Under the pieces are notes generated by a model that ran no database searches, was not told where the DNA came from, and saw nothing but the letters and a program-made list of their open reading frames with translations. Of a stretch of DNA of 64,000 nt, positions 5,976-64,000 are shown piece after piece. The stretch is from an uncultured candidatus Porisulfidus sp. (lineage in GTDB: Bacteria > Pseudomonadota > Gammaproteobacteria > Poriferisulfidales > Poriferisulfidaceae): the NCBI GenBank assembly GCA_965116025.1, contig OZ220480.1, positions 736,001 to 800,000 on the forward strand, read 5' to 3'. The first letter of the stretch is position 1; the number at the start of each line of letters is the position of its first letter. The position numbers and the translations under genes were made by a program.

Positions 5976-6029
5976 TCCGGCCCAAAATCGGTGTCAGCTC
6001 GGAAATCTGGGGGTCAAACGATTCTGGAT

Positions 6030-9889: not shown

Positions 9890-11109
9890 GGAGCGCGCTC
9901 GCGGACGCGCACTGAGCGGCGCTCGTCCATGGCCGCGACGTCGCGGGCGACGATGCGGTCCCCCTCGTTCAGGTCCGCCTTGATCACGCGCCAGGAGCCC
10001 ACGCGCGGTCCTGGCTCGACGTCGACGCGGCGCAGCGACTGGCCCTCGATCCGGTATACCGAGTGCCCCGACGCGTCCACCCGCAGGGCCTCCACCGGCA
10101 CCGCCAACGCGTTTCGGATGACTGGAAGAGGAAGGCGGGCGATGGCCAGCCGTCCCGGCGCGGCGTGCGCGCCGGGGATTCGGATCCGCAGGGCGTGCGT
10201 GAAGGTGCGCGGGTCCGGGTCGGCCTGCAGGGCGACCAAGACCCCCGGGATTTCCCGCCCTTCCGTTCGCACGGCGATCTTCCGCTCAAGTTCCAGAGCG
10301 CCGGCGGCGGTTCCGTCGACCTCCACATAGAAGTCGAGCTCCGACGCGTCGACCAGGGTGATGACCGTTTGGTCTCCGGTGATGCGGTCGCCGATCTCGG
10401 CTCGCACTTCGTTGACCGTTCCGTCGAACGGCGCCACCAGCCGCGCGCGCGCGAGATCCCGCCGGGCCTGATCGAGCTTCGCTCGCTTCAGCGCCCGGCG
10501 CTGCCCGCCGGTTCCGACTGAGTGGCGAAGCTCCGCCACCCGCGATTCCAACTCGGCCAGCTTCTGCTCGGCGGCGTTGAGCGAGGATCTCGAAAGCAAT
10601 GAGCGCTCATCCAGCGTTCGGTGCCGCGCGACCTCCTCGCGTTGCAGGTCGCGATGCCGAATCGCCTGCGTCAGTCGGACCTGATCTCGCTTGATGCCGC
10701 TTTCCTCAAGGCGCAACTCCGCCTCGGCGACGCGCTCCCGATCCCGGAAGTCCTGATCGTCGAGAGTCATCAGCGCGTCTCCGGTGGAGACCTTCATTCC
10801 GGGCTCCACCTCGCGGCGCAGCAGCCGTCCCGGGACCTCGAACCGCAACGCCGCGCGCCGCCGCGGCTGAAGCCGGCCCGTGAAATCGGCGGAGGGCGAG
10901 ACGTCGCGCCGCGTCACCACGTGCGCCTCCACCGCCAAGGGGGGGAGCTCCTCCAGGACCACCTCCGGTCGCGGAGCGGTGGCGACCAGGGCGTAAGCCG
11001 CGAAGCCGAAAAGCCCAAGGGCCGCGATCGCCCAAAAACCTGATCCGAGCGACCGGAAAAATCGCCACTTCCGCTCGCGTGGTCGGGTGGAGTAGGGGGA
11101 GGAACGCAT
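9886..11109 (-). CDS. efflux RND periplasmic adaptor subunit (MFP)
   Basis: ATG 11109; one TM segment, lipoyl half motifs FEVPGRLLRREVEPG and LVAPFDGTVNEV, coiled-coil hairpin. Confidence 0.9.
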   Translation of the reverse strand: MRSSPYSTRPRERKWRFFRSLGSGFWAIAALGLFGFAAYALVATAPRPEVVLEELPPLAVEAHVVTRRDVSPSADFTGRLQPRRRAALRFEVPGRLLRREVEPGMKVSTGDALMTLDDQDFRDRERVAEAELRLEESGIKRDQVRLTQAIRHRDLQREEVARHRTLDERSLLSRSSLNAAEQKLAELESRVAELRHSVGTGGQRRALKRAKLDQARRDLARARLVAPFDGTVNEVRAEIGDRITGDQTVITLVDASELDFYVEVDGTAAGALELERKIAVRTEGREIPGVLVALQADPDPRTFTHALRIRIPGAHAAPGRLAIARLPLPVIRNALAVPVEALRVDASGHSVYRIEGQSLRRVDVEPGPRVGSWRVIKADLNEGDRIVARDVAAMDERRSVRVRERAP

Positions 11110-11186
11110 GGCTGGACCGAGAGGGCGCGGCAGTCGGTAGAATATACCAGACGACACGGCCGGTCCCGCGCTGGCCGCATCGGTGC

Positions 11187-13424
11187 ATGCAGACCTTTCG
11201 CCGCGCCTTTCTGCTGATGACCCTGGGACCCTGGGGCGCCGTGGCGTGGGCGGAGGAGCCGTTGCCCCTTCCGGAACCGCTCGAGCCGGCGTATTGCGGA
11301 CCGATGGATATCGGCGTGGACGCGGGGGAGAGCGATGAGCTGGAGGCGGAGGCCGGACGGGTCCGGCGCGACGGCGACCAGGTCGAGATGAGCGTGGACG
11401 TTCGCGTTCGACAGGGAACCGCGCGCGCCAGCGCGGAATCCGCGCGGATCGACCGCGGGCGGAGCCGGGCGACGCTGGAAGGCGACGTTCGCATGAGCGG
11501 GCCGGGCGTCGCTCTGGAGGCCGATCGGATGGAGCTGGACTACGCGCGCGGACGGATGGAGGCCACCGACGCCCGCTATCGCCTGAGCGGAGGGGGGACG
11601 GGTCGCGCCCAGCGGATCGAGCGCTCCGAGGACGGCGCGCTGGAGGCCGAGGAAGCCAGTTATTCCACCTGCGCGCTGGAGAGCCCGCTCTGGAGCTTGC
11701 GGGCGGAGACGATCCGGATCGATCCGGCTGAGGGACAGGGCGAGGCGCGTGGCGCCACGCTCCGCCTCGGTCCGGTACCGGTGATGGCCATGCCTTGGGT
11801 GGGATTTCCGGTCGGGGACGCGCGCAGGAGCGGCTGGCTGGCGCCGGAGCTCGGGACTTCCGACGATCTGGGCTACTCCCTGGAGACACCGTATTATCTG
11901 AATCTCGCCCCGCACTACGACGCGGTCCTATCCGCCCGCTACATGGGACGGAGGGGCTTGCAGGTCAAGCCGAGCGGCCGCTACCGGACGCGGCATGGCG
12001 GCGGCGCGGTTCGCGCCGAGTTCCTGAGCGATAACGAGACGGACGATGACCGCTACCTGCTGCACTGGCGCCACGCCGGCGCTCGCCTGAGTGGCTGGGA
12101 CTACCGGATCGACTACACCGACGTGTCCGACCGCGCGTATCTAGAGGATTTCCGGTCGGGCGTCCACGGGCTGTCGGCGACCCGACTGCGGCAGGAGGCG
12201 AGCGTCGCGTGGCGCTCTCCCGCGTGGACCTTCAGCGCCGCGTTGACCGGGAGCGACCCGCTGAAGGACCAGATCGAGCGGTGGGACCGGTTGCCGAAGG
12301 CGCGCGCCAAGGGAGTCGTCCGGATTCCCTCGGCGGGGTTGGTGCTGGTCCCGGCGTTCGCGGTTGACGCGTTCCGGGGTGATCTGGACGCGCTGGGCGT
12401 GCAGGGGGAGCGCTACGACGCGGGGCTGACGCTCGCCCGAAAGATCGCCGGTGCTGGCTGGCAGGTGACGCCGCGCCTGCAGTGGCGCCACACCCAGTAC
12501 AATCTGAAGCATTCCGACGCCGCGGAGGCGACCGCCAGGGAGGCGGGCGAGAAACTGGAGCGCTCGCCAAGCCGGACCTTGCCGATCTACAGCGTCGACG
12601 CGCGGGCGCGATTCGAGCGGCGGTTGGAGGACGGCGCCGTGCAGACGCTGGAGCCGCGGCTCTTCTATCTAAGCCGCCCGCGGCGCGATCATAGCGACAT
12701 TCCCATGTTCGACAGCCGGAGAATGGATCTCGATTTCGACACGATGTTCCGCGGCCCCCGAGCCGCGGGGCGCGACCGGATCGGCGCCGTCGACCTTCTG
12801 GCGACCGGCGTCGAAACGCGAATCATCGACCCGGTCTCGGGCTACCAGCGACTGCGGGCCCGGCTTGGCCGCGTCTGGTATTTCCGGCCTCCGCCCGCGC
12901 TCGTCCATGGCGGCGAGGGAGACCACGCGAAATCCGCCTGGGCCGCCGAGATCGATTTCCGCCCCGCGCCGCGATTCCAGTTGCGGTCCGCGTTGCGCTA
13001 CGATCCGGGGCATAAGGGTAGCGACACGACTTGGGCCTCGCACATGATCGGCTGGAACGGAACGGATGGCGAGCGCTTCCAGGCGCGCTACCTCCGCCGC
13101 GCGGAACCCTTGGGCGAGGCGGAGAAAATCGAGCAGGCGGAGGCGTCCGCGCTGTTCCCGCTGGGCCAGAACTGGCATATGACCTTTCGCTACCGCTACG
13201 ATTTGCGTGGAGACCGGAGTCTGGAGACCCTGTCCGCTCTCGAGTACCGAGGGTGCTGCATGACCGTGGGAATCGGCGCGTGGAAGATTCGCCGCGAGGT
13301 AGGAGAGGAATCCGAAAGCCGCGTGATGCTGCAGGTTCGCTTCCATGGTCTGGCCGGTTTCGGGGAGGACGTCGTGGCCCGGACGCGCCGGGAACTGGAC
13401 GGGGAGTTGGTATGGCCCTATTGA
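11187..13424 (+). CDS. lptD: LPS-assembly protein LptD
   Basis: YSTC..W, TPYYLNLAPHYD, QTLEPRLFYL, EYRGCC; lies upstream of surA-pdxA. Confidence 0.93.
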   Translation: MQTFRRAFLLMTLGPWGAVAWAEEPLPLPEPLEPAYCGPMDIGVDAGESDELEAEAGRVRRDGDQVEMSVDVRVRQGTARASAESARIDRGRSRATLEGDVRMSGPGVALEADRMELDYARGRMEATDARYRLSGGGTGRAQRIERSEDGALEAEEASYSTCALESPLWSLRAETIRIDPAEGQGEARGATLRLGPVPVMAMPWVGFPVGDARRSGWLAPELGTSDDLGYSLETPYYLNLAPHYDAVLSARYMGRRGLQVKPSGRYRTRHGGGAVRAEFLSDNETDDDRYLLHWRHAGARLSGWDYRIDYTDVSDRAYLEDFRSGVHGLSATRLRQEASVAWRSPAWTFSAALTGSDPLKDQIERWDRLPKARAKGVVRIPSAGLVLVPAFAVDAFRGDLDALGVQGERYDAGLTLARKIAGAGWQVTPRLQWRHTQYNLKHSDAAEATAREAGEKLERSPSRTLPIYSVDARARFERRLEDGAVQTLEPRLFYLSRPRRDHSDIPMFDSRRMDLDFDTMFRGPRAAGRDRIGAVDLLATGVETRIIDPVSGYQRLRARLGRVWYFRPPPALVHGGEGDHAKSAWAAEIDFRPAPRFQLRSALRYDPGHKGSDTTWASHMIGWNGTDGERFQARYLRRAEPLGEAEKIEQAEASALFPLGQNWHMTFRYRYDLRGDRSLETLSALEYRGCCMTVGIGAWKIRREVGEESESRVMLQVRFHGLAGFGEDVVARTRRELDGELVWPY

Positions 13425-14701
13425 TTCGCGCCGGAATCCTGGCGCTGTCGCTGGGCGCCGGGGCCGCGGCGGCCGAGGTGCTGGACCGCGTGGTGGCGGT
13501 GGTCGAGGACGACGTCATCACCCTGTCGGAGCTCCAGGATCGCGTCGAGATCATCGTCAAGCAGATTCAGCAAGGAGGAACGCCGTTGCCGCCGCGCGAC
13601 CAGCTGATCGACCAAGTGCTGGAATACATGGTCGTCGCCCGCCTGCAACTGCAGCTCGCGGAGAAGCGAGGGGTCGCCCTGCCGGTCGACGCGGTGGCAC
13701 GCGAGATCCAGTCGCTCGCGCGGCGCAACGGAATGGAGACGCAGGAGTTCCGGCGCCAGATGGAGCGTGGGGGGGTCCGCTTCGCCAGCTTCTACGACTA
13801 CCTCCACGAGCAGATGCTGACCCAGCGTCTTCAGCAGATGGAGTCCCGCCGGCTGGTGCGAGTCACGGAGGAGGAGGTCGACAACTTCATTCGGTTGCAC
13901 TCCGATCGCCTCCAGGCCGACGTCCGGTATCACTTGGCGCACATTCTGCTCGCTGTGGAAGGGCGGCCAACCCCGGAGGAGATCGGGCGCCTGCGGGACA
14001 AGGCCCACGGCCTGACCCAGAGAGTCCGCGACGGCGAGCGCTTCGCTCGCCTCGCCCTGACCGAATCGGATGGTCGCAACGCCCTCAAGGGTGGAGATCT
14101 CGGCTGGCGTGACGCCGCGGATCTGCCGAGTTTCGCGGCCGACGCGATCGCGGCGCTGGAGCCGGGCGAGATCACCGACCCGATTCGCAGCGCGAGCGGC
14201 TTTCACCTGTTCCAGCTCACTAACAAGGAGGGCGCCGGTCAGATCATGGTGAACCAGACGCGCTCTCGACACATCCTGATCCGGACCAGCGCCCTGGTCG
14301 ATGACGACGAGGCGCTCGCCCAGCTCAAGACCTTGAAGGACCGGCTCGCTGGGGGCGACCGCTTCGAGGACCTCGCCCGCTCGCATTCCGACGACATCGC
14401 CTCGGCCTCGGACGGAGGCAACCTCGGATGGACCTCGCCAGGCAAGCTGGACCCATACTTCGAGGAGCGGATGAACCAGCTGGAAGTTGGCGAAGTGAGC
14501 GAGCCGTTCCAGACCCAGTTCGGCTGGCACATCGTGCAGGTGCTGGAGCGCCGCCGGGTCGACGAGACGAAATCAGCCTTGCGGACGCGGGCGCTGAATC
14601 ATCTGGCCCGCTCCCGGGTCAACGACGAGATCGACATCTGGTTGCGGCGGTTGCTGAACAACTCCTACGTCCGCTATATGACCGGCGAGCGCGATGCGTG
14701 A
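13412..14701 (+). CDS. surA: periplasmic chaperone/PPIase SurA
   Basis: LDRVVAVVEDDVITLSEL; two parvulin domains (GGDLGW, GGNLGW, TQFGWHIV). Confidence 0.95.
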   Translation: MALLIRAGILALSLGAGAAAAEVLDRVVAVVEDDVITLSELQDRVEIIVKQIQQGGTPLPPRDQLIDQVLEYMVVARLQLQLAEKRGVALPVDAVAREIQSLARRNGMETQEFRRQMERGGVRFASFYDYLHEQMLTQRLQQMESRRLVRVTEEEVDNFIRLHSDRLQADVRYHLAHILLAVEGRPTPEEIGRLRDKAHGLTQRVRDGERFARLALTESDGRNALKGGDLGWRDAADLPSFAADAIAALEPGEITDPIRSASGFHLFQLTNKEGAGQIMVNQTRSRHILIRTSALVDDDEALAQLKTLKDRLAGGDRFEDLARSHSDDIASASDGGNLGWTSPGKLDPYFEERMNQLEVGEVSEPFQTQFGWHIVQVLERRRVDETKSALRTRALNHLARSRVNDEIDIWLRRLLNNSYVRYMTGERDA

Positions 14702-52017: not shown

Positions 52018-53157
52018 TTAGGCGATGAAGATGAAATCGAAGTCGTCGACGGTCAGGTCGCCCGCGTTGAAATCCTTCAACGTGATGGTGTCTCCCTCAT
52101 CGCCATAGCCGACGACCGTGTCCTTGCCTTTTTGCGAGATTCTCAATTTCCCGAAAGCGTCCTCGTCCAAGAGGTCCGGATCGTCAAAGAGGGGGGCTGG
52201 ACCGTCGAGGTGGAGTTGGATGATATCTCCACGACCAGATTCCCGGGCCGCCAAGAAAGCTTCGTACGTAGGGAGATAGTCACTGCTTCCGCTAAAGCCG
52301 AAGCCAAAGTCATTGATGACGTCGTTCCCATCGCCCTCGCGAAACACGAAGGTCTCGGCGCCCCAGCCACTTTCCATGACATCGTTGCCTTTGCCGCCAT
52401 TCATGATGTCGTCGCCCCAGCTGCTTTCCAGGATGTCGTTGCCCTTTCCGCCGTTCAGGGTGTCGTCGCCCCAGCCGCCTTCCAGGATGTCCTGACCCTT
52501 CCCGCCATACAGCGTGTCGTCGCCCCAACTGCCATCCAGGATGTCCTGGCCCTTCCCGCCATACAGCGTGTCGTCGCCCCAACTGCCATCCAGGATGTCC
52601 TGGCCCTTCCCGCCGCGCAGCGTGTCGTCGCCCCAGCCGCCGTTCAGGGTGTCGTTTCCATTATGTCCTTGCAGAACGCTGTCGCTCCAGCCAGCTACCA
52701 GCACGTCGTGGCCATTTCCGCCGGTCAACTCGCCATCGCCTTCCCGAACGACGCCGCCCCCCGTCTCCGCGACGGTCTCAACAAAATGAAAGTCCTCCGC
52801 CGTCAGGAGGTGATTCCCGTTCTCGTCGATCAGGTCCGCGACGTCGCGCAGGATGATCTTGTTGCCGCTGTCGTCCCACCGAATCGTGATGACGCTTTCC
52901 GAAGCGTCCACATCGAAGCGCAGGTCGTCGAACGTCCCGTCGAGTTGCGTGAACCGAATCATGTCGCCTTTCTCGAAGTCGAGGATGGTGTCGACGCCGT
53001 TCCCCCGGTCCGTCTGGAATATGAAGAGGTCCTTCTTATCGGTGGCCTGATGCGTCTCGTTCCAGTACTGAAGCTCCGGGTTCGCGTAGAGGCGCTCAAG
53101 CGTGTAAGGCGAATAGTTTTCGCTGGTGGCTTTTTCGCGGTCTCGGAATATCGCCAT
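52018..53157 (-). CDS. RTX-type calcium-binding repeat protein (probable type I secretion substrate)
   Basis: GGxGxD nonapeptides (GGKGQDILD/GSWGDDTLY), FVFREGDGNDVINDF, C-terminal LTVDDFDF; GAGGAG RBS. Confidence 0.88.
   Translation of the reverse strand: MAIFRDREKATSENYSPYTLERLYANPELQYWNETHQATDKKDLFIFQTDRGNGVDTILDFEKGDMIRFTQLDGTFDDLRFDVDASESVITIRWDDSGNKIILRDVADLIDENGNHLLTAEDFHFVETVAETGGGVVREGDGELTGGNGHDVLVAGWSDSVLQGHNGNDTLNGGWGDDTLRGGKGQDILDGSWGDDTLYGGKGQDILDGSWGDDTLYGGKGQDILEGGWGDDTLNGGKGNDILESSWGDDIMNGGKGNDVMESGWGAETFVFREGDGNDVINDFGFGFSGSSDYLPTYEAFLAARESGRGDIIQLHLDGPAPLFDDPDLLDEDAFGKLRISQKGKDTVVGYGDEGDTITLKDFNAGDLTVDDFDFIFIA
52350..52660 (-). repeat. 54-bp (18-aa) tandem repeats encoding RTX nonapeptide pairs
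   Basis: Near-identical units such as GTGTCGTCGCCCCAACTGCCATCCAGGATGTCCTGGCCCTTCCCGCC repeated with 54-bp period. Confidence 0.85.
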
Positions 53158-53228: not shown

Positions 53229-53346
53229 GTCAAGTCAGGCGGCTTCGCGCGGTCCTGGACGCCGTGGCGAAATCTCGCCTGAGCGACCTTCGGGGGAAGC
53301 CTCGCGCGCTCTTTATAATGAGGCCGTTCGCGTGGTATGGAAACCG

Positions 53347-54237
53347 ATGTTCAACAGTCTGTTTCTCGATGATGTCGCTGGCAACAAGAACGAGCGCCAG
53401 CAACTCGACCACCTCCTAACGATCACGGCGCCGCACGAGCGCGTCATCCTGGCGGGCATTGGCGCGATTTTGCTGGCGCTCGCGGCGTGGGCGCTGTTCG
53501 GCGCCGTCGCGCGCGACGTCACGGTCACCGGGGTTTTGCTCAAGCCCGGGGAGCGCCACGAGATCGTCTCGACCGAGCCAGGGCGCCTGGTGAGATTTCT
53601 GGTCGCGCCCGGGGACGTAGTGGAGCAGGGAGGGGCGCTCGCCCGCCAGACCGTGCCGGAACTGGAGCGCGAGGTGGCCGCCTTGCGCGACCAGGTCGAT
53701 ATGCTGGAGACGAGGGCTAGGCGGGTTGATGGCGACGACGCTCATTCGGCGCTGGCGGCGGCTCGGGAAGCGTTGTTTCGAATGGAGGCGCGGCGCGGCG
53801 CGAGAGAGACGATCGTCAGCCATTTCAGCGGCGAGGTCATGGCCTTGAGCGCGGCTCCGGGAGACTATCTGCCCGCTGGGTCGGTCGTCGCGCGGATTCG
53901 CGAGCGCGAGGCCGACGAGTCGCTTCAGGTGGCGTTGCTGGTCGACTCGCGCGTCGCGAGACGTCTCCAGGCCGGGATGCCGGCCCGAGTTGAGGTGGTG
54001 ACAGCGGGCGGAGAAACGCGCGAGGTGGAAGGAGAGGTCGAATCCATGATTTCTGATCCTCCGCCAAGATGGCTGTCCGAATTTCTGTCCGCGGACGAGG
54101 GTCTCGCGCATCGCGTCAATATCGCGCTCCGCCCCGATTCGAACGGCCTGGACGCGCCGGATGGCGCTCCGTGCCGCGCGCGGGTCGCGTTCGACCAGCA
54201 CCCGCTCGTCGCTTTCTTCGATCCTGAACGGCTCTGA
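53347..54237 (+). CDS. NHLP bacteriocin system secretion protein (HlyD-like adaptor)
   Basis: ERQQLDHLLTITAP..WALFGAV..VTGVLL is typical of NHLM secretion proteins; TATAAT at 53314. Confidence 0.85.
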   Translation: MFNSLFLDDVAGNKNERQQLDHLLTITAPHERVILAGIGAILLALAAWALFGAVARDVTVTGVLLKPGERHEIVSTEPGRLVRFLVAPGDVVEQGGALARQTVPELEREVAALRDQVDMLETRARRVDGDDAHSALAAAREALFRMEARRGARETIVSHFSGEVMALSAAPGDYLPAGSVVARIREREADESLQVALLVDSRVARRLQAGMPARVEVVTAGGETREVEGEVESMISDPPPRWLSEFLSADEGLAHRVNIALRPDSNGLDAPDGAPCRARVAFDQHPLVAFFDPERL

Positions 54238-54249
54238 TGGCCGTCTTGA

Positions 54250-56472
54250 ATGCCTTCTTCCACCACGCGCGAATGCTCCGAATCCGGTAAGCCGCGGCGA
54301 GCGGGGCGCGAGAGGCGGCGCGTGACCACGCCGCTTCTGCTGCAGATGCATATGACCGAGTGCGCCGCCGCGAGTCTGGGCAGCGTGCTCGCCTATTTCG
54401 GTCGCTGGGCGCCGCTCGCCGAATTGCGGGACGCGTGCGAGATCAGCCGCGACGGCTCCACCGCCGCCGGCATCAAGCGCGCCGCTGAGCGCTACGGCCT
54501 CGAGTGCGCGGGCTTTTTCGGAAAGATCCATCAAGTCAAGAAGCGGCCCCTTCCGCTGATTCTGTTCTGGGAATACAACCACTTCCTCATCCTGGAAGGC
54601 CACGACGAAAAATGGTTCTACCTCAACGATCCGGCCACCGGGCGCCGCAAGCTGTCCAGGAAGAGGTTCGAGGAGGGCTTCACCGGAGTGGCCCTGCAGT
54701 TCAAGCCGGGACCGGAGTTTCAGCCTGGGGGCGTTCGCCCTCGGATCCTGGAGCGCGTCCCGTCCTGGTTCCGGGGCGCCGGGCCGGCCTTGGCCTATGT
54801 GGCCGGGTGCGGGCTGGCGCTGACCGCGCTGGCCCTCGTGACTCCCGCGTCGCTGGCCATTTTCGTGGACCAGGCTCTGGGGCAAGGCGAGCCCTGGGGC
54901 TGGATCGTGGCGGGCGCGATGGCGGGCGCGGCCGTTCTGGTGTATGCGCTGACCTGGCTGAAGCGGCGATGCCTGCGGCGCTTGGCCGCCCGGATATCGA
55001 TCATCGCTTGGGATCGATGCCTGACTCGATTTCTGCGGTTGCCGATCGACTTCTTCCACCACCGCTTCGCGGGAGAGTTGACCGCCCGCGTTCTGTCGGT
55101 CGACAAGATCGCCAAGACTCTCTCGAATCATTTCGTCGATCTCCTGATCGAGCTCGGAATGAGCCTGGCGTTCCTGGCCGTCATGCTGGCGTACGAGCCG
55201 ACGCTGGCGTTGATCGTTTTGGGCCTGGCCGCGATCAACGCCGCTCTGACGCGCCTGATCGCTCGATTCCGATCAGACGCGAGCCACGCCCTGCAGCGGG
55301 AGCAGGGCCTGTTGCTCGGCATCGGGACGATGATGCTGCACCACACGGACACGTTGCGGATGACCGCCTCGGACGATCGCTTTTTCTCTCGCTGGAGCGG
55401 GCATCAGGCCCGGGAGCTTGCCGCGCGCCAGCGTTTCTCCGAACTGAGCCACGTCAACTCGTCCCTGCCAGGCATGTTCTCGATCTTGGGGAGCGTGGCG
55501 GTCCTGGCGGTTGGCGCGACCAAGGTGATGGATGGCGAGATGACGCTCGGCATGCTGATGGGGTTTTATGTCGTGGCCGCCATGTTCTTGGAGCCCGTCG
55601 GGCGCTTCGTCTCGTTCTCGGACGATCTCCAGGCCCTTTCGACGGACATGCAGCGTCTGGAGGATATCACGAAAGCCTCGGAAGATCCGGGGCTGGCGCG
55701 TCGCGATGATTCGTCGGGCTCCCTCGCCACTCTGAACGGGCGCCTGCGCTTGGCGGGCCATGTGGAGCTGCGCGACGTCAGCTTTGGCTACAACCGCGGC
55801 CGTCCTCCTCTGATCAAGAATTTCAACTTGACCATAAAGCCTGGGCAAAGGGTCGCGGTGGTCGGATCCAGCGGATCGGGAAAATCCACCCTGGCGCATC
55901 TGGTTTCCGGCATCTACCAGCCATGGTCCGGGGAGATCTTGTTCGATGGCCGCCCTCGACGCGAGATACCCGACGCGGTGCTGTCGCGATCCCTGTCCAT
56001 GGTGGACCAGAACGTCATTCTCTTCACCGCGACCGTGCGCGAGAACATCACGTTGTGGAATCCGGCCATTCCGGACGACATGCTGGTTTCCGCGGCCCGC
56101 GACGCCCGCGTTCACGACGATATTCTCGGTCGTCCGCATGGCTACGCGACGCGAGTCGAGGAGGATGGGGACAACTTCAGCGGGGGTCAGCGGCAGCGGC
56201 TGGAAATCGCGCGGGCGCTGGTCGGCAACCCGACCGTGCTGATTCTCGACGAGGCGACCAGCGCGCTCGACGCGGCGACGGAGGACTTGGTCGATGACGC
56301 GCTACGCCGCCGGGGAATCAGCTGCTTGATCGTGGCGCATCGGCTGAGCACGGTTCGAGACTGCGACCAGATCATCGTGCTCGAGAAGGGCGAGGTCGCG
56401 CAACGCGGCTCCCATGAGGAATTAATCGCGGACAAGGACGGGGTCTACTACCGGCTCGTCCAGGCGGGCTAG
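54250..56472 (+). CDS. NHLP-family export ABC transporter, C39 peptidase/permease/ATPase
   Basis: TPLLLQMHMTECAAASL (Cys), FWEYNHF (His), NDPATG; Walker A GSSGSGKS, FSGGQRQRLEIAR. Confidence 0.93.
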   Translation: MPSSTTRECSESGKPRRAGRERRRVTTPLLLQMHMTECAAASLGSVLAYFGRWAPLAELRDACEISRDGSTAAGIKRAAERYGLECAGFFGKIHQVKKRPLPLILFWEYNHFLILEGHDEKWFYLNDPATGRRKLSRKRFEEGFTGVALQFKPGPEFQPGGVRPRILERVPSWFRGAGPALAYVAGCGLALTALALVTPASLAIFVDQALGQGEPWGWIVAGAMAGAAVLVYALTWLKRRCLRRLAARISIIAWDRCLTRFLRLPIDFFHHRFAGELTARVLSVDKIAKTLSNHFVDLLIELGMSLAFLAVMLAYEPTLALIVLGLAAINAALTRLIARFRSDASHALQREQGLLLGIGTMMLHHTDTLRMTASDDRFFSRWSGHQARELAARQRFSELSHVNSSLPGMFSILGSVAVLAVGATKVMDGEMTLGMLMGFYVVAAMFLEPVGRFVSFSDDLQALSTDMQRLEDITKASEDPGLARRDDSSGSLATLNGRLRLAGHVELRDVSFGYNRGRPPLIKNFNLTIKPGQRVAVVGSSGSGKSTLAHLVSGIYQPWSGEILFDGRPRREIPDAVLSRSLSMVDQNVILFTATVRENITLWNPAIPDDMLVSAARDARVHDDILGRPHGYATRVEEDGDNFSGGQRQRLEIARALVGNPTVLILDEATSALDAATEDLVDDALRRRGISCLIVAHRLSTVRDCDQIIVLEKGEVAQRGSHEELIADKDGVYYRLVQAG

Positions 56473-56475
56473 CCG

Positions 56476-59385
56476 ATGCCGCTTCCAGAAATCGGCTCTC
56501 TTGAGCGCTTGGCCCTCCAGTCAGGCGCACCGACGCCTTGCGCCGGAAACCTGCCGATCGATCTGGATGATCCGCGACGCGCCTGGTTCATCGAGAAGGG
56601 CGCGGTCGATCTATTTCTGGTCGAGCGCCAGGATGGCGAGGACCAGGCGTCTCCGCAACATCTGTTTCGCGCCGACGCCGGGCGTCTCTTGCCGGGCGTG
56701 GCTCCGCAAATAAAGGGCACGGCGTTCAGCTTGAGGGCGAAAGGCTTGCCGGGCACGGTGCTGCGCCGCCTTTCCACCGAGCGCCTGAGCGCGATCTCGA
56801 GCGCGGAATTGGCCGAGCGGATCGACGCGTGGATCGCGGATCTCTCCACCGAGCTTTCCCGAGACGCGGGGCGCCGGCCGCGACCCGATTCGCCCATCCA
56901 GCCCGGCGAGCTCTCGCTCAACGCGGGTGACACGCTCTCGTCCCGGCAGGGCGTGGCGTGGATATCGCGGCTGCCTCAGGGCGCGGGACTGTTTCTGGGG
57001 TTGATCGATCCGGCCGAGAGCGATTTGCCCGACAGGGCCGCCACGCCGCTCACGCCGGCGACCTGGCTGACGTTGATGGAGACGACGAAAGTTTCCGTCC
57101 GCTCCTCCCGAGAGCTCGCCGAAGAGGGGCTTCTTCTGCCGGCCTTGGCGAGCTTCCACGGGACCGCGTTCGCTCATGAGCGGCTCAATCGCGATTTGGC
57201 CGCCGCCGATCAGGCGAATCTGGAGCGGGACCGCGTCACGAACCGCCGTGGCGACGAGGATCGCGCCCGTCGCCACCTGTTCAACCTTTATGATCGTCCG
57301 GATCAAGGAGCGGCCGACGCGAAGGGCGAGGCCTTGCTCGAGGCGCTGAAAGTCATCGGGGAGCGTGAGGGCATCGAATTTCAGTGGCCCGCCAGGCCGG
57401 GCGCCACCGATTCGGTTCCCGCGCTCGGCGACGTCCTGGACGCTTCCGGGGCGCGCGCCCGGCAGGTGCGGCTCGCTTGGGAAGAGCGATGGTGGGTGGG
57501 AGACGGCGGCGCGATGCTGGCGTTTCGAGAAGCCGACGGGCGGCCCGTGGCTTTGCTGCCCGGGGCGCTCGGGCGCTATCGGGAAGTGGAGCGAGCGGGC
57601 TCGCGCGGCGTTCGGGTGACTCCCCAGCGAGCGAAGGCGCTCGGTCCTGACGCGTGGGTGTTCTACCAGCCGCTGACGCCGGGCGAGGCGCGGCCGCGGG
57701 ATCTGTACCGACTCGTCCGGAAGGGCTTGGCCGCGGACTTCCTGCGATTCGTGGCCGCTGGCCTGATCGGTGGGCTGGTCATGCTGGCGCCCGCCGCCAT
57801 GGTCGGTTTCGTCGCCGACGAGGTCATTCCGACGGGCGAGGTCGGCTTGCTGCGCTTGGCGGTCGCGACCTTGGCCGCGCTCGCCTTGGCCGGGGCGCTG
57901 CTGCATATCCTTCAGGGCATGGCGCTCATGCGTCTCGAGGGGCGCGGCGCGTTCCGACTCGAGGCCGCGTTCTGGGATCGGTTGCTCCGATTGCCCTTGA
58001 GTCTCCTGCGCCGCTACCCGGCGGGCGATCTCGCCATGCGGGGCATGACGTTCCAGACTCTTCGCGACGCCGCGCGGGACGTGGTCGCCACCGCGGCGCT
58101 GTCCATCGTCTTCTCGCTTCCGGCCTTTCTTCTGATCTTCTATCACGACGCGACGCTGGGGATCGTCACGGTCGTTTTCGGATTCTTCTCTCTGGCCGTG
58201 ACCCTGGCGCTGGGCCTGCGGCAAGTCCCTCCGCACGACCGGGTGACGCGAACCGTTCATCGCATGGCCGGCCAGCTGTTTCAGTTCACGAACGGCATTT
58301 CCAAACTGCGGGTCGGTGACGCGGAGGGAACCGCCTTCGCGGTGCTGGCGCGAGGATACCGCGAGCGGAAGCGCGCGGAGTCCGGGCTGGGAGCCCTGGA
58401 AGACCATTCGCGGGCGTTCGGGGCCGCGGTGCCGCTGCTGGGCGGCGCCGCGCTGTTTCTGATGATGGAGCCGGGCCGGGAGGGCGTCGAGGTCGGGGAC
58501 TTTCTGGTCGTCTATCTCGCGTTCATGGTGTTCCAGGTGGCGGTCGCCAAGCTGGGCTCCTCGTTCGGCGCGGTCGCCGCCATCGTCTCGGCTTTCCGGC
58601 AGATCCGCCCGTTTCTGTCCGCGACTCCGGAGACGAGCTCCGAGGGAGAGCGGGTCGAGAGTCTGGGAGGCGAGGTGGCGCTCGACCATATCACGTTCCG
58701 GTACGACCCCGAAGGTCCCCTGATTCTCGACGATGTCACGATTCGCGCCCATCCGGGCGAGTTCGTCGCCATCGCCGGGGAATCGGGGGCGGGCAAGAGC
58801 ACGATCTTCCGAATCGCCCTCGGCCTGGACCAGCCGTCGTCCGGCGCGGTGTACTACGACGGGCGCGACCTGAGACGCCTGAATCTCAAGCAGCTGCGCC
58901 GGAAGGTCGGCGTCGTGCCGCAGGACGTGCAGCTTCACCCGGAGGATATCTGGGACAACATCGTCGGGGATCAGGAAGGCGTGGGGGCCGAGGAGGCCTG
59001 GGCGGTGGCCCGGGCCGCCTCGGTCGAGCGCGACATCCGGGCGATGCCCATGGGAATGATGACCTGCGTCGGGGGTGGCGGCCTCACGTCCGGAGGCGAA
59101 AGCCAGCGCATCATGATCGCGCACGCGCTGATCGAGCATCCTCGGGTCATGCTGCTCGACGAGGCGACGAATTGGCTCGATAACGACAATCAGGCCAGAA
59201 TCATGGACAATCTGGCGAATCTTCGATCCACCCGGATCGTGATCGCCCATCGCCTCTCGACCTTGCGCCAGGCGGACCGAATCTACGTGATGCGGGAGGG
59301 AAAGGTGGTCGAGATCGGGACGTTCGAGACGCTGATGGAGATCAGCGGAGTCTTCTGGAATCTGGTGCGGCGGCAGATCGCCTGA
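56476..59385 (+). CDS. NHLP bacteriocin export ABC transporter permease/ATPase (second subunit)
   Basis: N-terminal cNMP-like WFIEKGAVDLF, GRPVALLP, WDRLLRLP, GESGAGKS, SGGESQR, LLDEAT. Confidence 0.9.
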   Translation: MPLPEIGSLERLALQSGAPTPCAGNLPIDLDDPRRAWFIEKGAVDLFLVERQDGEDQASPQHLFRADAGRLLPGVAPQIKGTAFSLRAKGLPGTVLRRLSTERLSAISSAELAERIDAWIADLSTELSRDAGRRPRPDSPIQPGELSLNAGDTLSSRQGVAWISRLPQGAGLFLGLIDPAESDLPDRAATPLTPATWLTLMETTKVSVRSSRELAEEGLLLPALASFHGTAFAHERLNRDLAAADQANLERDRVTNRRGDEDRARRHLFNLYDRPDQGAADAKGEALLEALKVIGEREGIEFQWPARPGATDSVPALGDVLDASGARARQVRLAWEERWWVGDGGAMLAFREADGRPVALLPGALGRYREVERAGSRGVRVTPQRAKALGPDAWVFYQPLTPGEARPRDLYRLVRKGLAADFLRFVAAGLIGGLVMLAPAAMVGFVADEVIPTGEVGLLRLAVATLAALALAGALLHILQGMALMRLEGRGAFRLEAAFWDRLLRLPLSLLRRYPAGDLAMRGMTFQTLRDAARDVVATAALSIVFSLPAFLLIFYHDATLGIVTVVFGFFSLAVTLALGLRQVPPHDRVTRTVHRMAGQLFQFTNGISKLRVGDAEGTAFAVLARGYRERKRAESGLGALEDHSRAFGAAVPLLGGAALFLMMEPGREGVEVGDFLVVYLAFMVFQVAVAKLGSSFGAVAAIVSAFRQIRPFLSATPETSSEGERVESLGGEVALDHITFRYDPEGPLILDDVTIRAHPGEFVAIAGESGAGKSTIFRIALGLDQPSSGAVYYDGRDLRRLNLKQLRRKVGVVPQDVQLHPEDIWDNIVGDQEGVGAEEAWAVARAASVERDIRAMPMGMMTCVGGGGLTSGGESQRIMIAHALIEHPRVMLLDEATNWLDNDNQARIMDNLANLRSTRIVIAHRLSTLRQADRIYVMREGKVVEIGTFETLMEISGVFWNLVRRQIA

Positions 59386-59485: not shown

Positions 59486-59830
59486 TCAGAGATGGTGGTT
59501 CAGACGTAGCTCCACGATGCTGTCGCGGCGCGCCGGATAGATCTGCCGGTTTCTCTCGTCCGCGCTGAGCGCGTGGAAGCCCTCCGCGTTCTTGGACCAG
59601 CGCTCTCGAAGCCTCTTCGTGGCGGGCATCGCATCGAAGGAAAAGTCCCGCGCCCGGATCCGCTCGAAGCCCGCCTCCTCAAGGGTCGCGACCACCCCGC
59701 TCCATGGTTCCAGAGGCGGCATGCGCCAGCCGTATCGCGCGCTCGCGCGCATGGCTTCTTGCTCTTCGGACATGGGCGCGCCGCTCCTTGACAGAGCCAT
59801 CTCGACGTGGACAATGCCAAGATGCTGGCG
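59486..59830 (-). pseudogene. possible C-terminal remnant of a SAM-dependent methyltransferase
   Basis: LEEAGFERIRARDFS resembles class I MTase C-terminal strands; no motif I seen. Confidence 0.3.
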
Positions 59831-59853: not shown

Positions 59854-62265
59854 ATGGCGGAAGTCAGGGCAGAGGCGGGCGGCCTGAAGGGAAAGGCTCT
59901 CGATCCCTCGATCGGGAACGCCTTGCCGCACTTCCTGCCCCTCTTAGTTTTTCCGTTGCTCGCGCTCGCCGCGACGCATGGCGGCTGGTGGACCGCGGGG
60001 CCGCTCCTCTTCATCGCGCTGGTGAAGGTTCTTGATGGCGCGTTTGGGGAAGAAGAGCGGAATATGGACCCGAGCGCGCCGCTGGCGGGCCGCCTGCCTT
60101 GGTACGAGGCGCCGCTCTGGCTGTGGTCGATCCTGTGGCCTCTGACGCTGGTCTTCTCGCTCTGGCAGATTCTCGTCGCCGACCATTTGGCCATTTGGGA
60201 AATCGCGCTGGTGGCGCTGGCGCTGGTCAACGTCTCCCAAGCGGTTTTCATCATCGGCCATGAGCTGATCCACCGGCAGGCCACGTGGGAACGCTGGCTC
60301 GGCGAGTTTCTGCTGGCCTCCGCGTCTTATCCGCATTACGCGACCGAGCATGTCTACGTCCATCACGTGCTCGCCTGCACGCCGATGGATTCCGGGACCG
60401 CTCCCAAAGGCGTGAGCTTTTGGCAACTCATACCCGGAGATTTGAAGAACAGTCTTCTCGAGTCTTGGCGATTCGCGCGCGACCGTCTCGCTCGCCGGCG
60501 CTTGCCCGTCTGGCATCACGCGAATCCGTTCTGGCGCCACATCGCCGGAGTCGGGGCGTGGTACGCGCTGGTGTACTGGATGGGCGGGCCGTGGGCGTTG
60601 CTGATCTACGTGGCTCTTTGCTTCAGCGTGATCCTCTTTATGAAGATCATCAACTATGTCCAGCACTACGGCTTGCAACGCATTCGCTTGCCGAGCGGTC
60701 GATACGAGAAAGTGCGGCCGTGGCACTCCTGGAGCGCCTCGAGCAGGCTCACGAACTGGCTTTTCTACAACATGCAACGCCATGCCGATCACCATATCGA
60801 GATGATTCGGCATTATCCGTTGTTGCAGCACTATGGCGAGGACGAGTCCCCCAAGCTGCCGGGAAGCTACCTGCGGATGATCGGGCTGGCCGCGTTCCCC
60901 CGACGCTGGTTCAAGACGATGGACCCGCTGGTTGATCGCTGGCGCGAGAAGTTCTATCCGGAGATCAAGGACTGGCGCGCTTACGAGAGTCGGGCGTATG
61001 CCGCGTACCCGGACGCGTTCGAGACGATTCGCGAAATTCTCGATACCGCGCCCCTTCTCGCCGACTGGGTAGACGAGTCTCCGGAGTTGCTGGAAAACTT
61101 GCGGAGCAGGGAATTCACGGACCTGGACCTTCCGGGCGGCTTCGGGCCGGACGCGGAGTTCGAGAGGGTCGCTCGGCGCGGCCTCGCTCGCCTGTACTGG
61201 ACCCGCGAGTTCGGAGTCTCCGAGATGAGGGAGCGGATCGCGGAGATCCCGTTCCAGGGAATCCGGGAGGCGGTGGAGATCGCGCGGCGCTGGTCGAACG
61301 ACAAGACGTTCCAGATCTGCATGCATACGGCGCGCGGAAGCCTGTCGCCAGCTGAGGCCGCGACGGCGCTGTCCAACGTCGCCGAAGCCTCGATTTCCGC
61401 CTCGCTGGTGGCGGCCCAAAAAGTTCTCTCCGATCTCTACGCGTGGCGAGTCGAGGAGGGGAGCGTGGCCGTGGCGATATCGGGAGAGCTGGGCGGTGGC
61501 GAGACGACCCCTGGGGTCAAGTTCCGCCCCGTGATCGTGCATCAAGGAGCGGCCTCGGAATCCCACGACTACGAAGCGGCGTGCGGTCGATTCGTCGAGG
61601 CGCTCCGTTCTTTGTCGCGCGTCAATTTGCTGCTCGCGCCGGTCGCGAAGGACGAGGAGGAGAGAATGGTCTATTCCCTCGCTGAGTTCGTGGAGCGCTG
61701 TCGGTCCGCCACGTCCGCCGAGGACGCGCTCGAGCTAGCCCGGACGCGGCTCGTTTTTGGGGCTAGAACCTCCGAGACCGGAAGGCGACTCGCCGAGACG
61801 CGGCAGGAAGTCCTGACCCATGGCGCGGCGCGGGACGCGCTGCTCGCTGAGGCGCGCGAGAGGGACGGACAAGTCGCCGAATCCGGATCGCCCTCGATCC
61901 GCGACATGCGTGGCGGCGGCCGGGATGTCGAGCGCGCCGCCAGATTCCTGCAGCTGAAGCATGTGGACGACGTCCCTGATCTTCTAGCTACCGACGCGAT
62001 CTTGATTTTCCGGGTCGCGGGCGAAAGCGGGGTGGTTCCCGCGGATCTCGCGGAACGCCTGGAAAGCGCCGCGAAGATGTGGCGGAACCTGCGGGGCATC
62101 CTGCGACTGGTGAAGAAAGATCGCGCGTCGGCGGAAGCGGCGACTCCAGAAATCAAGGAGGTGATCGCCCGCGCCTGCGGACAGGACGATTTTGACGATT
62201 TGACCAAGGCGATCCGCGAGACCGCCTCTCAAGCGGGCGCCGACATTGACGCGCTGACGGCATGA
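59854..62265 (+). CDS. AlkB/fatty-acid-desaturase-type membrane di-iron enzyme fused to a degenerate GlnE-like nucleotidyltransferase region
   Basis: GAGGAGG RBS; His boxes HELIH, EHVYVHH, NYVQHYG, MQRHADHH; C-terminal ALSNVAEASI, VAISGELGGGE, RGGGRDVERAARFLQL. Confidence 0.8.
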   Translation: MAEVRAEAGGLKGKALDPSIGNALPHFLPLLVFPLLALAATHGGWWTAGPLLFIALVKVLDGAFGEEERNMDPSAPLAGRLPWYEAPLWLWSILWPLTLVFSLWQILVADHLAIWEIALVALALVNVSQAVFIIGHELIHRQATWERWLGEFLLASASYPHYATEHVYVHHVLACTPMDSGTAPKGVSFWQLIPGDLKNSLLESWRFARDRLARRRLPVWHHANPFWRHIAGVGAWYALVYWMGGPWALLIYVALCFSVILFMKIINYVQHYGLQRIRLPSGRYEKVRPWHSWSASSRLTNWLFYNMQRHADHHIEMIRHYPLLQHYGEDESPKLPGSYLRMIGLAAFPRRWFKTMDPLVDRWREKFYPEIKDWRAYESRAYAAYPDAFETIREILDTAPLLADWVDESPELLENLRSREFTDLDLPGGFGPDAEFERVARRGLARLYWTREFGVSEMRERIAEIPFQGIREAVEIARRWSNDKTFQICMHTARGSLSPAEAATALSNVAEASISASLVAAQKVLSDLYAWRVEEGSVAVAISGELGGGETTPGVKFRPVIVHQGAASESHDYEAACGRFVEALRSLSRVNLLLAPVAKDEEERMVYSLAEFVERCRSATSAEDALELARTRLVFGARTSETGRRLAETRQEVLTHGAARDALLAEARERDGQVAESGSPSIRDMRGGGRDVERAARFLQLKHVDDVPDLLATDAILIFRVAGESGVVPADLAERLESAAKMWRNLRGILRLVKKDRASAEAATPEIKEVIARACGQDDFDDLTKAIRETASQAGADIDALTA

Positions 62266-62442
62266 CTCGGAAGCGCCCCGCGCCGAAATTCGCGCGCGCG
62301 TCGAGCTCGAGAATCGTGGAAACCGGCCAGCTCCCTTAGAGCGGCCGACGGCATTGGATCTTCTGGCGTGAAGCGTGGCGCGGACGGGCTATGCCGGGAC
62401 GCGATCCCGCGTGACCAGGCCCAGCCAGCGGGAAGATCAGGC

Positions 62443-64000
62443 GTGGACGGAAAGCCTGATGACGAAGCGTCGCCGCGAGCGGCTCCCAGCCGTGGAATTC
62501 TGAGCGAAGTCGCGGCCGCCGAGATAGGCCCCATCGAGAGGCCCGCGATCACTCCGCACCTTGAGTTTCGCGAGATCGACGCCGGACGGACGCTCTTGGT
62601 TTCCGAGCGTTTCAACACGTTGCTTCGCGAGCCAATCCACGCGGAACTTCTCCCGTTGCTCGATGGGTCTCGCTCCCGCCGCGACATCATCGCCGCGCTT
62701 TCGCCCGCGCGCTCGGAATCGCGGGTTCAGGCGGCGTTGCGGGCTCTGGCCTCCCGGGGCTATATCGTTTCTGGAGAGCACGCCATGGATCGCGGGTCCG
62801 CGGCGTTTTGGACTTCTCTGGGGGCCTCTCCCCGATACGCTGAGGAGCGTCTCGCGGAATCGAGAGTGGAAGTCGTGGGCGATGACGCCGAGCTGGCCCG
62901 CCGGCTTGGCGCCATGGGCGTGAGCGTTGGCGCGGGCCGTCCGACTCTGGTCGTCGTCTCGTGCGCCGACTATCTTGATGAGCGGCATGCCGCCGCGAAT
63001 CGGCGGCACATCGAATCGGGCGTGCCGTGGACGCTGATCAGACCGAAAGGAATCCGCCCTTTATTCGGACCGATTTTCCGGCCGGCGGAAGGGGGGCCTT
63101 GCTGGGCTTGTCTGGCGTACCGTCTCCGGGGACATCAGGAAGTCCATAACTTCTTGCGCAACCTTTCTGGCGAGGAGGCGGCTTTCCTGCCCAATGTCGC
63201 TGAGCCCGCCGTCTTGGCGGCGATCTACGGTCTGGCCGCGGCCGAAATCGCCAAGTGGCTGGTTTTCCGAGAAAAAGCGCCGCTTCACGAGCAGGTCATC
63301 TCCATGGATGTCGCCCGCCTCGAGAGCGCGCGCCATCAGGTGGCGCGTCGTCCGCAGTGTCTCGAGTGCGGCGACGAGGCGTTGTTCCGCGCCGACCGCC
63401 CGGCGACTCCCGCGCTCTTGAAGCCGAGCCCGAAAAACGTCCGCGACAGTGGTGGCGCGCGCTCGGTGTCCCCGGAGGAGACCTTGGGCAAGTATCGCCA
63501 CCTGATCAGCTCGGTCAGCGGGGTCGTGTCGTGGCTGACGCGCGTTACGGAGGATGGCGATCCGTGGTTGCATGTCTACTGGGCCGGAAGCAATTTCGCG
63601 CTGAGAAGCGACAGGCTGAGCTCGCTGCGACGTAGCCTGCGAAACAAGAGCGCGGGCAAGGGGAGCACGCCTCGACAGGCCGAGGCGAGCGCGCTTTGCG
63701 AGGCGGTCGAGCGTTATTCCAGCGCGTTCCATGGCGACGAGATCCGTCGCCGAAAGCGTTTCGTCGATTTTCTCAAGGCGGGCGAATTGGAAGCCATCCA
63801 TCCGAACGAGGTCCAGCTGTTCAGCGACCGTCAGCTGGAGAACGCCGAGCGAATCAACGCTCGGGGCCATCCCTATAACTTCGTTCCGGCGCGGTTTGAC
63901 CCAGAGGCGGAAATCGATTGGTCACCCGTATGGTCGCTGACCCAGGGCCGGCATCGCTATTTGCCGACTTCCGTGCTCTACGGAATGCCTGACGAGAGGC
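62443..64000 (+). CDS. TOMM leader-binding/E1-like + YcaO cyclodehydratase fusion; runs off the window's right edge
   Basis: Manual translation: LLPLLDGSRSRRDII, AFWTSLG, LFGPIFRP..GPCWACLAYRL, RRPQCLECG, SGGARSVSPEETL, SAGKGSTPRQAEASALCEAVERYS; start uncertain (GTG 62368 or 62443). Confidence 0.9.
   Translation, partial: MDGKPDDEASPRAAPSRGILSEVAAAEIGPIERPAITPHLEFREIDAGRTLLVSERFNTLLREPIHAELLPLLDGSRSRRDIIAALSPARSESRVQAALRALASRGYIVSGEHAMDRGSAAFWTSLGASPRYAEERLAESRVEVVGDDAELARRLGAMGVSVGAGRPTLVVVSCADYLDERHAAANRRHIESGVPWTLIRPKGIRPLFGPIFRPAEGGPCWACLAYRLRGHQEVHNFLRNLSGEEAAFLPNVAEPAVLAAIYGLAAAEIAKWLVFREKAPLHEQVISMDVARLESARHQVARRPQCLECGDEALFRADRPATPALLKPSPKNVRDSGGARSVSPEETLGKYRHLISSVSGVVSWLTRVTEDGDPWLHVYWAGSNFALRSDRLSSLRRSLRNKSAGKGSTPRQAEASALCEAVERYSSAFHGDEIRRRKRFVDFLKAGELEAIHPNEVQLFSDRQLENAERINARGHPYNFVPARFDPEAEIDWSPVWSLTQGRHRYLPTSVLYGMPDER

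Follow-up and report, generated by a model that had tools for sequence, protein, structure and literature searches.

The membrane di-iron enzyme AlkB has an active site that is accessible from the membrane, and its reaction takes O2 and two electrons. Since a natural rubredoxin fusion is located at its C-terminus, that end of the enzyme is cytoplasmic. Gene clusters for one group of ribosomally made peptides with post-translational modifications (RiPPs), the srp or sponge-derived RiPP proteusin clusters, were reportedly described by Nguyen et al. in 2021. Here we analyze a gene from a 64,000-nucleotide stretch of DNA, hereafter the window, of an uncultured candidatus Porisulfidus species (assembly GCA_965116025.1, contig OZ220480.1, positions 736,001 to 800,000). 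The encoded protein joins a di-iron domain of the AlkB fold, which is intact, to a soluble module derived from GlnE's adenylylation half, and on the whole we think it probable that this fusion is a conserved membrane tailoring oxygenase of the srp-type proteusin (NHLP) pathway in sponge symbionts, with the dead GlnE module in a docking or regulatory role.

Known AlkB fusions, in the parts of a review available to us, carry only a C-terminal rubredoxin or an N-terminal ferredoxin-reductase/ferredoxin (PMC8918992), in agreement with the original prediction for this stretch, which held that such fusions bear rubredoxin or ferredoxin domains and not GlnE. The present fusion resembles the rubredoxin-fused enzymes in placing a soluble domain at the cytoplasmic, likewise C-terminal, end (PMC8918992, same parts), and is unlike both kinds in that its extra domain is not a redox protein. 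For the srp system, the available portions of two papers describe a precursor, SrpE, with the core LCCCW, a YcaO enzyme, SrpC, that converts the three Cys residues to thiazolines, and SrpI, which brominates the terminal Trp (PMC10858898, PMC10286304); a preprint, likewise available in part, places the clusters in many sponge-symbiont phyla and counts them among the most widespread and highly transcribed RiPP clusters of sponge microbiomes (bioRxiv 10.1101/2023.06.09.544420). A full-text literature search, with the founding paper and supplements outside its reach, found no paper tying AlkB, a desaturase or GlnE to srp clusters.

The N-terminal part of the fusion is AlkB-like in sequence and fold. 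Hydrophobic segments of transmembrane character are confined to residues 20-271, residues 26-362 matched AlkB structures in the PDB by phmmer (8f6t, E 6.8e-54; 8sbb, E 7.2e-37), and Pfam FA_desaturase covered residues 115-343 (E 6e-24). An AlphaFold2 model of the whole fusion (pLDDT 78.7, pTM 0.76) returned the same two structures in Foldseek (8f6t, E 9.4e-14, TM-score on the target 0.69; 8sbb, E 2.9e-12). The four AlkB-like His motifs that had been predicted, HELIHR, EHVYVHH, NYVQHYG and QRHADHH, are all read from the translation, and the nine His ligands are kept across 119 full-length family members (H313 in 118 of the 119). The fusion shares with FtAlkB (8sbb/8f6t) its fold and a nine-His di-iron site in four motifs, at 34% identity to 8f6t in the Foldseek alignment.

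The third of these motifs had been singled out for reading NYVQHYG instead of NYxEHYG. That reading stands, but the substitution is not peculiar to this gene, given that Gln occupies the position in all 119 family members and in standalone AlkB-like proteins as well; the conserved Glu, which the canonical AlkB-only matches have, is absent from the fusion. Aligned to the PDB sequence, Q270 corresponds to E281 of FtAlkB, a Glu near Fe1. In the structural paper E281 is a conserved residue beside Fe1, and the equivalent position, which is taken by water in the desaturase SCD1 and by His in the hydroxylase Scs7p, may tune the reaction (PMC10110569). The same paper names L274, L315 and L318 of FtAlkB as contacts of the substrate terminus (PMC10110569); in our alignment these correspond to M263, F304 and M307. 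Unlike FtAlkB, then, the fusion has Gln for the Fe1-proximal Glu and an M/F/M pocket, and it bears a GlnE-like C-terminal module of 430 residues. The sequence NYxQHYG was also present in 36 standalone AlkB-like open reading frames (ORFs) of 340-580 residues from metagenomes (loci L062-L097), found by a scan whose pattern was biased towards Gln. At ten standalone Gln-type loci inspected the neighbors were housekeeping genes (tRNA synthetases, FtsY, MgtE), and a search of these surroundings for a clue to the chemistry yielded none.

By its genetic context the fusion is linked to RiPP genes. We compared 23 loci that carry it, 5 from species genomes and 18 from metagenomes, locating partner genes by tblastn; three pairs are near-duplicates (L007 and L021, L022 and L023, L026 and L033), and the set is therefore not 23 independent observations. 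A PatD-like YcaO gene stands beside the fusion gene in 17 of the 23 loci, the gene for a 368-residue protein in 16, an NHLP precursor in 14, NHLP-type export genes in 13 and an MMPL/HpnN-like transporter in 12. At least one such partner gene or NHLP-type exporter was present in 20 of the 23, and the only loci lacking partners (L032, L034 and L035) are each cut by a contig end. The proposal that the fusion lies in a RiPP cluster is thus borne out, and by this count its homologues are linked to YcaO/NHLP genes across phyla. In the window's genome the fusion precedes a PatD-like cyclodehydratase of 805 residues, which is followed by the 368-residue protein of no known family.

The precursors of these loci are NHLP proteins of 83-92 residues that end in ...EEQLExIxAG followed by a short core of the form L(C/S)CC-x. 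The cores observed were LCCCL, LCCCT, LSCCL, LSCCV, LCCCG, LCCCGI and LCCCW, with LCCCL in the window's genome, where a fused E1-like/YcaO cyclodehydratase accompanies this srp-type precursor system. The fusion is genetically locked to the PatD-like YcaO, to the 368-residue protein and to these precursors, in which the L(C/S)CC-x core directly follows AG. The cluster is of the already published srp type: like srp clusters, it has an NHLP precursor of about 83-92 residues that bears a motif of the LEEQL type and an L(C/S)CC-x core five or six residues long (LCCCW in one relative), together with a PatD-like YcaO, NHLP-type exporters and a spread over sponge-symbiont phyla. At L024 and L030 the genes run YcaO, 368-residue protein, precursor, HlyD, ABC, ABC, an order that might correspond to the lettering srpC to srpH. 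Unlike the srp type with LCCCW and SrpI, the core in the window's genome ends in Leu, not Trp, and no real SrpI-type Trp_halogenase was found in that genome, just an FAD-motif match in a UbiH-like ORF. A tryptophan halogenase lies between fusion and YcaO at L029 (13694-14971). Locus L028 (2207-2458 and 12560-15082) has the canonical LCCCW core and an S8 subtilase directly after the fusion, with no halogenase among the five L028 ORFs scanned. A SagB dehydrogenase occurs in only 2 of the 23 loci, the near-duplicates L007 and L021.

The specificity of this association is also apparent within the window's genome, which holds a second NHLP/YcaO system at about 1.08 Mb (L011-L013, G000:C1 about 1082000-1090000, G000 being the window's genome). 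Its three precursors have long cores rich in Ser, Thr, Gly and Ala, and with them come two genes for PatD-like YcaO proteins and the single SagB-type dehydrogenase of the genome. This system is without the fusion, which is therefore specific to the short L(C/S)CC-x system.

The same neighborhoods could be read in another way, namely that the fusion leaves the peptide alone and serves, with MMPL or RND transporters, as a membrane-lipid or export factor that remodels lipids for self-protection or processes a lipid carrier. Consistent with this are the MMPL (HpnN-like) genes counted above, RND genes directly downstream of the fusion in five loci (L024, L025, L030, L035 and L019) that are homologous to RND transporters bearing the same dead GlnE-like module, the housekeeping surroundings of the standalone Gln-type AlkB-like genes, and lipid or isoprenoid-type genes near several clusters (a geranylgeranyl reductase at L004 and L005, a polyprenyl synthetase at L024, and CMAS-like methyltransferases). 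DprE1/cytokinin-oxidase-like FAD enzymes are present in six loci. We nevertheless consider this explanation unlikely, as the tightest partners of the fusion are YcaO and the 368-residue protein and not the transporters, the accessory lipid genes differ between loci, and in the window's genome the MMPL gene is a pseudogene while the fusion is intact.

The remaining part of the protein had been described as some 400 residues resembling GlnE, and structure and profile comparisons confirm it. The NCBIfam GlnE equivalog NF010706 aligned residues 472-794 of the fusion with positions 637-974 of its 986 (E 1.6e-18) at 65.8 bits, far under the 724-bit cut-off, and the Pfam GlnE and GlnD_UR_UTase matches fell below threshold. 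In the PDB, a profile built from 41 family members matched the adenylylation domain of E. coli GlnE (3k7d, E 6.7e-19) as well as the enzyme's N-terminal half (1v4a, E 9.7e-4). Foldseek with the AlphaFold2 model gave 1v4a (E 2.8e-11, TM-score on the target 0.69), 3k7d (E 7.3e-9) and the GlnE-like AMPylase DrrA (E 6.7e-5), with six matches at E <= 0.001 and nothing meaningful beyond AlkB, GlnE and DrrA. Like GlnE (3k7d, 1v4a), the module consists of a nucleotidyltransferase core and a helical domain; unlike GlnE, which has two tandem transferase halves, it is a single half.

The nucleotidyltransferase motif of this half is eroded in the window protein, as predicted. The motif GELGGGETTPGVKFR aligns to GKLGGWELGYSSDLD of 3k7d with D-L-D replaced by K-F-R, and in the HMM alignment, where GKLGGWELGYSSDLDLIF of 3k7d stands opposite GELGGGETTPGVKFRPVIV of the fusion, the catalytic, metal-binding Asp pair falls on K556 and R558. 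The DxRLRPSG motif of true GlnE is absent as well, in this and in every other fusion aligned, so that the module of the window protein lacks DxRLRP in addition to the catalytic acids. The description of the domain as dead is therefore clear for the clade with K and R at these positions, which includes the window protein, but most members of the family retain an E-x-D pair: of the 119 members, 76 have E, 12 have D and 31 have another residue at position 556 (acidic in 88), while at position 558 there are 89 with D, 7 with E, 12 with R and 11 with another residue (acidic in 96). Given this retention, a loss of catalysis across the whole fusion family is something that we only infer.

These figures bear on a further alternative, that the module is still an active nucleotidyltransferase in most members, AMPylating the peptide or a partner, and that the window copy is merely degenerate. 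The acidic pair of most members speaks for it, as do the fold matches to GlnE and DrrA AMPylases and the well-kept G-x-L-A-S-G-E...P-G loop (G544 in 118 of 119, E550 in 111 of 119). However, residues vary freely at the first of the two acidic positions (E, D, A, G, K or R within the family; Q, R, T or K in more distant fusions with 25-37% identity in the module), DxRLRPSG is missing throughout, and the nucleotidyltransferase sheet is the least conserved region. Moreover, the K/R clade keeps the full 803-residue frame, with R558 in 12 of 119 members, and the module is therefore retained without the acid pair. We regard continued AMPylation as improbable. Since the nucleotide-loop residues G544, S548, E550, P553 and G554 are mostly retained in the family, the module may still bind a nucleotide without catalysis.

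Column entropies point to where the constraint lies: the linker and first helical half (residues 351-525) are as constrained as the AlkB core, and residues 526-803 are more variable, with the transferase sheet and C-terminal helices the most variable part. The most conserved part of the module is thus not the active site, and the module would best be read as a pseudoenzyme platform, a reading that its attachment to RND exporters and the separate, intact GlnE of the genome also favor. Two other ideas about its nature were rejected. A redox cluster is disfavored by the 119-sequence alignment, in which no invariant Cys/His set was found (C577 in 110, C633 in 109 and C775 in 109 of the 119, with C633 missing in the window protein). 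Nor is the module a recent duplicate of the genome's own GlnE, a separate and intact protein of 943 residues with SDIDL and DMRLRP, for the pairwise match had an E of 3e-4 over 72 residues only. A linker motif, REFTDLxLP...ARRGLxRLYY, is common to the fusion and one clade of true GlnE.

The fusion represents a family. A word-indexed protein search with the fusion gave 726 matches, the best 120 of which are about 665-837 residues long, 53-100% identical and all of the same architecture; their source names include Gammaproteobacteria, Acidobacteria and Nitrospira, and locus L007 is from an alphaproteobacterial metagenome-assembled genome (MAG). A quick maximum-likelihood tree built from 87 AlkB domains placed those of the fusions (20 full-length and 3 cut by contig ends) in one clade with an SH-aLRT of 100. 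This clade lies inside a well-supported group, unsettled in its branching order, that also holds AlkBs of the canonical Glu type and a single clade of Gln-type standalone proteins; the closest AlkB-only sequences, which fall outside the fusion clade, share no more than 42% identity. Within the window's genus the module was present in 11 of 16 genomes, the 368-residue protein in the identical 11, and the PatD-like YcaO in those 11 and two more, and the fusion was absent from all 37 genomes of the order outside the genus. Relatives are not independent samples, but the association turns up again in different phyla and with different gene orders. Among related loci, L003 and L005 bear the label Candidatus Porisulfidus. 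In two genomes of the same genus (G443 and G438) there is an additional, divergent copy of the fusion whose C-terminal module is 45-46% identical, which suggests paralogous clusters.

An exhaustive HMMER search with residues 370-803 returned 518 representatives at E <= 0.001, 50 of them at <= 1e-30. Pfam assigned 26 module representatives to FA_desaturase fusions (12), true GlnE (7), fragments (2) and RND fusions (5). In the last five (P0179 and P0182, of 1521-1525 residues, P0157, P0164 and P0173), which stem from Gammaproteobacteria MAGs, the module sits at the C-terminus of an AcrB-type RND transporter and is also degenerate, with P-L-E, P-V-E or R-L-D at the acidic motif. Two apparent standalone C-domain proteins (P0133 and P0143) were rejected as fragments, as they begin inside the AlkB tail. 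In a sample of 401 genomes of the phylum there were no RND-GlnE fusions, and the only fusion-type match was in the window's own genome, the six others being GlnE proteins of about 1000 residues.

Rubredoxin (PF00301) was without a match in the window's genome (2.02 Mb in a single contig, 99.39% complete), in which five Fer2-type ferredoxin matches were found, and therefore another electron donor must serve. The genome holds two AlkB-like genes despite the lack of a rubredoxin gene. That the fusion is an ordinary alkane or lipid hydroxylase with RiPP genes as mere neighbors, as its intact AlkB fold and His ligands and the names given to homologues where they are named ('fatty acid desaturase', 'alkane 1-monooxygenase', otherwise 'hypothetical protein') might suggest, is very improbable, given a genome without rubredoxin, a RiPP-cluster context instead of an alkane operon with no alkane-degradation genes among the neighbors scanned, an srp linkage that persists across phyla and gene orders, the perfect co-occurrence with the 368-residue protein in the 16 genus genomes, and the distance from AlkB-only sequences noted above. 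The Gln in place of the Fe1-proximal Glu and the M/F/M pocket likewise set the fusion apart from a standard alkane hydroxylase.

For the favored role as a tailoring oxygenase we propose the following mechanism. The di-iron domain would use O2 and electrons from a non-rubredoxin donor to hydroxylate or desaturate the pentapeptide, which is rich in thiazolines and very hydrophobic, on the membrane's cytoplasmic side and ahead of export. Candidate sites of oxidation are the side chain of the invariant Leu1 (a branched alkyl terminus), a thiazoline ring, or a lipid or prenyl group borne by the peptide. As a pseudoenzyme platform, the dead GlnE module would serve in docking or regulation, with the NHLP leader, YcaO, the exporter and the electron donor as candidate partners.

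The cluster in the window's genome is only partly preserved. The fusion, YcaO, the 368-residue protein and three export genes are intact. On the 3' side of the gene for the 368-residue protein, in locus L009 (G000:C1:798000-816000), there are two transposase genes (4205-6101 and 8573-9706) and an RTX-repeat gene, the MMPL transporter gene lies in at least four frameshifted pieces (10955-13000), and the neighboring NHLP precursor, 13 kb downstream of the fusion gene, is frameshifted (13195-13466). An intact precursor of 91 residues with the core LCCCL (TIGR03793, 72 bits) is encoded 1.19 Mb from the cluster, at G000:C1 1989945-1990220 (L010 1465-1740), where it adjoins dinB and a canonical Glu-type AlkB-like gene (NYLEHYG in relatives). 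In relatives dinB, the Glu-type AlkB-like gene and the precursor flank the fusion on its other side, which suggests that the srp-type locus was split by rearrangement in the window's genome.

Several points weigh against a tailoring oxygenase. With the MMPL gene, the precursor and a methyltransferase decayed and transposases inserted nearby, the pathway may be only partly functional in this organism. A precursor was not seen at L020, L022, L023 and L029, within the DNA available of each. In the portions of the papers available, the SrpC thiazolines and the SrpI bromination were obtained heterologously without the fusion enzyme (PMC10858898, PMC10286304), and those two reactions therefore do not require it. 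A function in export or membrane homeostasis, instead of peptide chemistry, would account for the RND fusions equally well. The reaction is not deducible from sequence, so that the chemistry proposed above is one that we infer, nor did the analysis single out an electron partner for the fusion.

The 368-residue partner had no match in Pfam or NCBIfam, and profiles of 9 and of 47 sequences found none in the PDB. Its gene is present in 3-4 tandem copies in one genome (G439) and in 2 in another (G444). An Atlas feature search with one homologue (P0349) returned 'putative prenyltransferase' clusters at 0.88-0.91, a weak pointer to aromatic prenyltransferases that we treat as a lead only, and the idea was without support from the sequence profiles; for prenylation of the srp core this and the isoprenoid-type genes would be weak leads. 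A more far-reaching possibility, which we regard as doubtful, is that the fusion is the first membrane AlkB-type enzyme to tailor a ribosomal peptide by oxidizing a lipid-like or prenylated tri-thiazoline pentapeptide, with the 368-residue protein as the lipid or prenyl transferase and the module as a new recognition or coupling domain, common to the oxygenase and the RND exporters, that would couple modification to export by passing on the product or the NHLP leader.

The features of the locus are collected in Table 1. The ORF of the fusion begins with an ATG at 59854 preceded by GAGGAGG and stops at 62265; a longer frame opens at 59704, but the N-terminus MAEVRAE... agrees with the MAE... 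consensus start of 41 homologues and supports the ATG at 59854. Two promoter-like sites were found against 0.3 expected. The gene lies between exporter and YcaO, as originally described, with the second NHLP ABC gene on one side and YcaO on the other. It is also in the frame of YcaO, (62368-59854) mod 3 being 0, a coincidence without significance. The YcaO protein runs past the end of the window and is complete in the genome (L009 369-2786), with TIGR03882 and TIGR03604 above cut-off. The methyltransferase remnant was recognized by tblastn with the methyltransferase of L004 (residues 180-243 of 294, 44% identity, E 5.6e-13). The cluster is flanked by two RTX proteins with calcium-binding repeats, one encoded at 52018-53157 (-), immediately upstream of HlyD and on the other strand, and one at L009 6208-7644 (+).

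Table 1. Features of the fusion gene and its cluster (window positions unless a locus is named)
Feature	Position	Strand	Basis
NHLP-type HlyD secretion protein	53332..54237	+	TIGR03794, E 8e-27
NHLP bacteriocin export ABC transporter with C39 peptidase domain	54250..56472	+	TIGR03796, 864.7 bits, above cut-off; Pfam
NHLP bacteriocin export ABC permease/ATPase, second subunit	56476..59385	+	TIGR03797, E 6e-201
Cluster methyltransferase remnant	59594..59785	-	tblastn; inside 104-aa ORF 59486-59800, directly 5' of fusion
Promoter-like TTGACA-16-GACAAT, 5' of fusion gene	59788..59815	+	consensus match only
AlkB-type/GlnE-like fusion gene, 803 aa	59854..62265	+	ORF and translation; full-length homologues 53-73% identical
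AlkB-type di-iron membrane domain, residues 1-369	59854..60960	+	PDB matches, Foldseek, hydropathy
His motif HELIHR (H136, H140)	60259..60276	+	translation
His motif EHVYVHH (H166, H170, H171)	60346..60366	+	translation
Motif NYVQHYG (Q270)	60652..60672	+	translation, 8f6t/8sbb alignment
His motif QRHADHH (H310, H313, H314)	60775..60795	+	translation
Soluble GlnE-like module, residues 370-803	60961..62262	+	profile, Foldseek; from adenylylation half of GlnE
Degenerate nucleotidyltransferase motif GELGGGETTPGVKFR (K556, R558 in place of two Asp)	61483..61527	+	alignment, translation
PatD-like fused cyclodehydratase (winged helix, E1-like, YcaO)	62368..64000, continues beyond window end	+	Pfam/NCBIfam
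368-aa protein (homologues P0272-P0391)	L009 2824-3930		no family match

The type of cluster is known, and within it the fusion is a conserved srp core gene that has apparently gone unstudied; the srp enzymes characterized in the literature covered, so far as its available parts go, are the YcaO enzyme and the brominase only. With two strictly co-occurring core genes, for the fusion and for the 368-residue protein, left to explain, the mature product is therefore probably more modified than by thiazolines and bromine. The dead GlnE module, found attached to two different types of membrane protein, offers a clean example of a pseudoenzyme domain recruited to a new job. If the role proposed here is correct, an AlkB-type enzyme in a RiPP pathway would represent a new enzyme class for peptide tailoring, and it could serve as a biocatalyst for peptide C-H oxidation.

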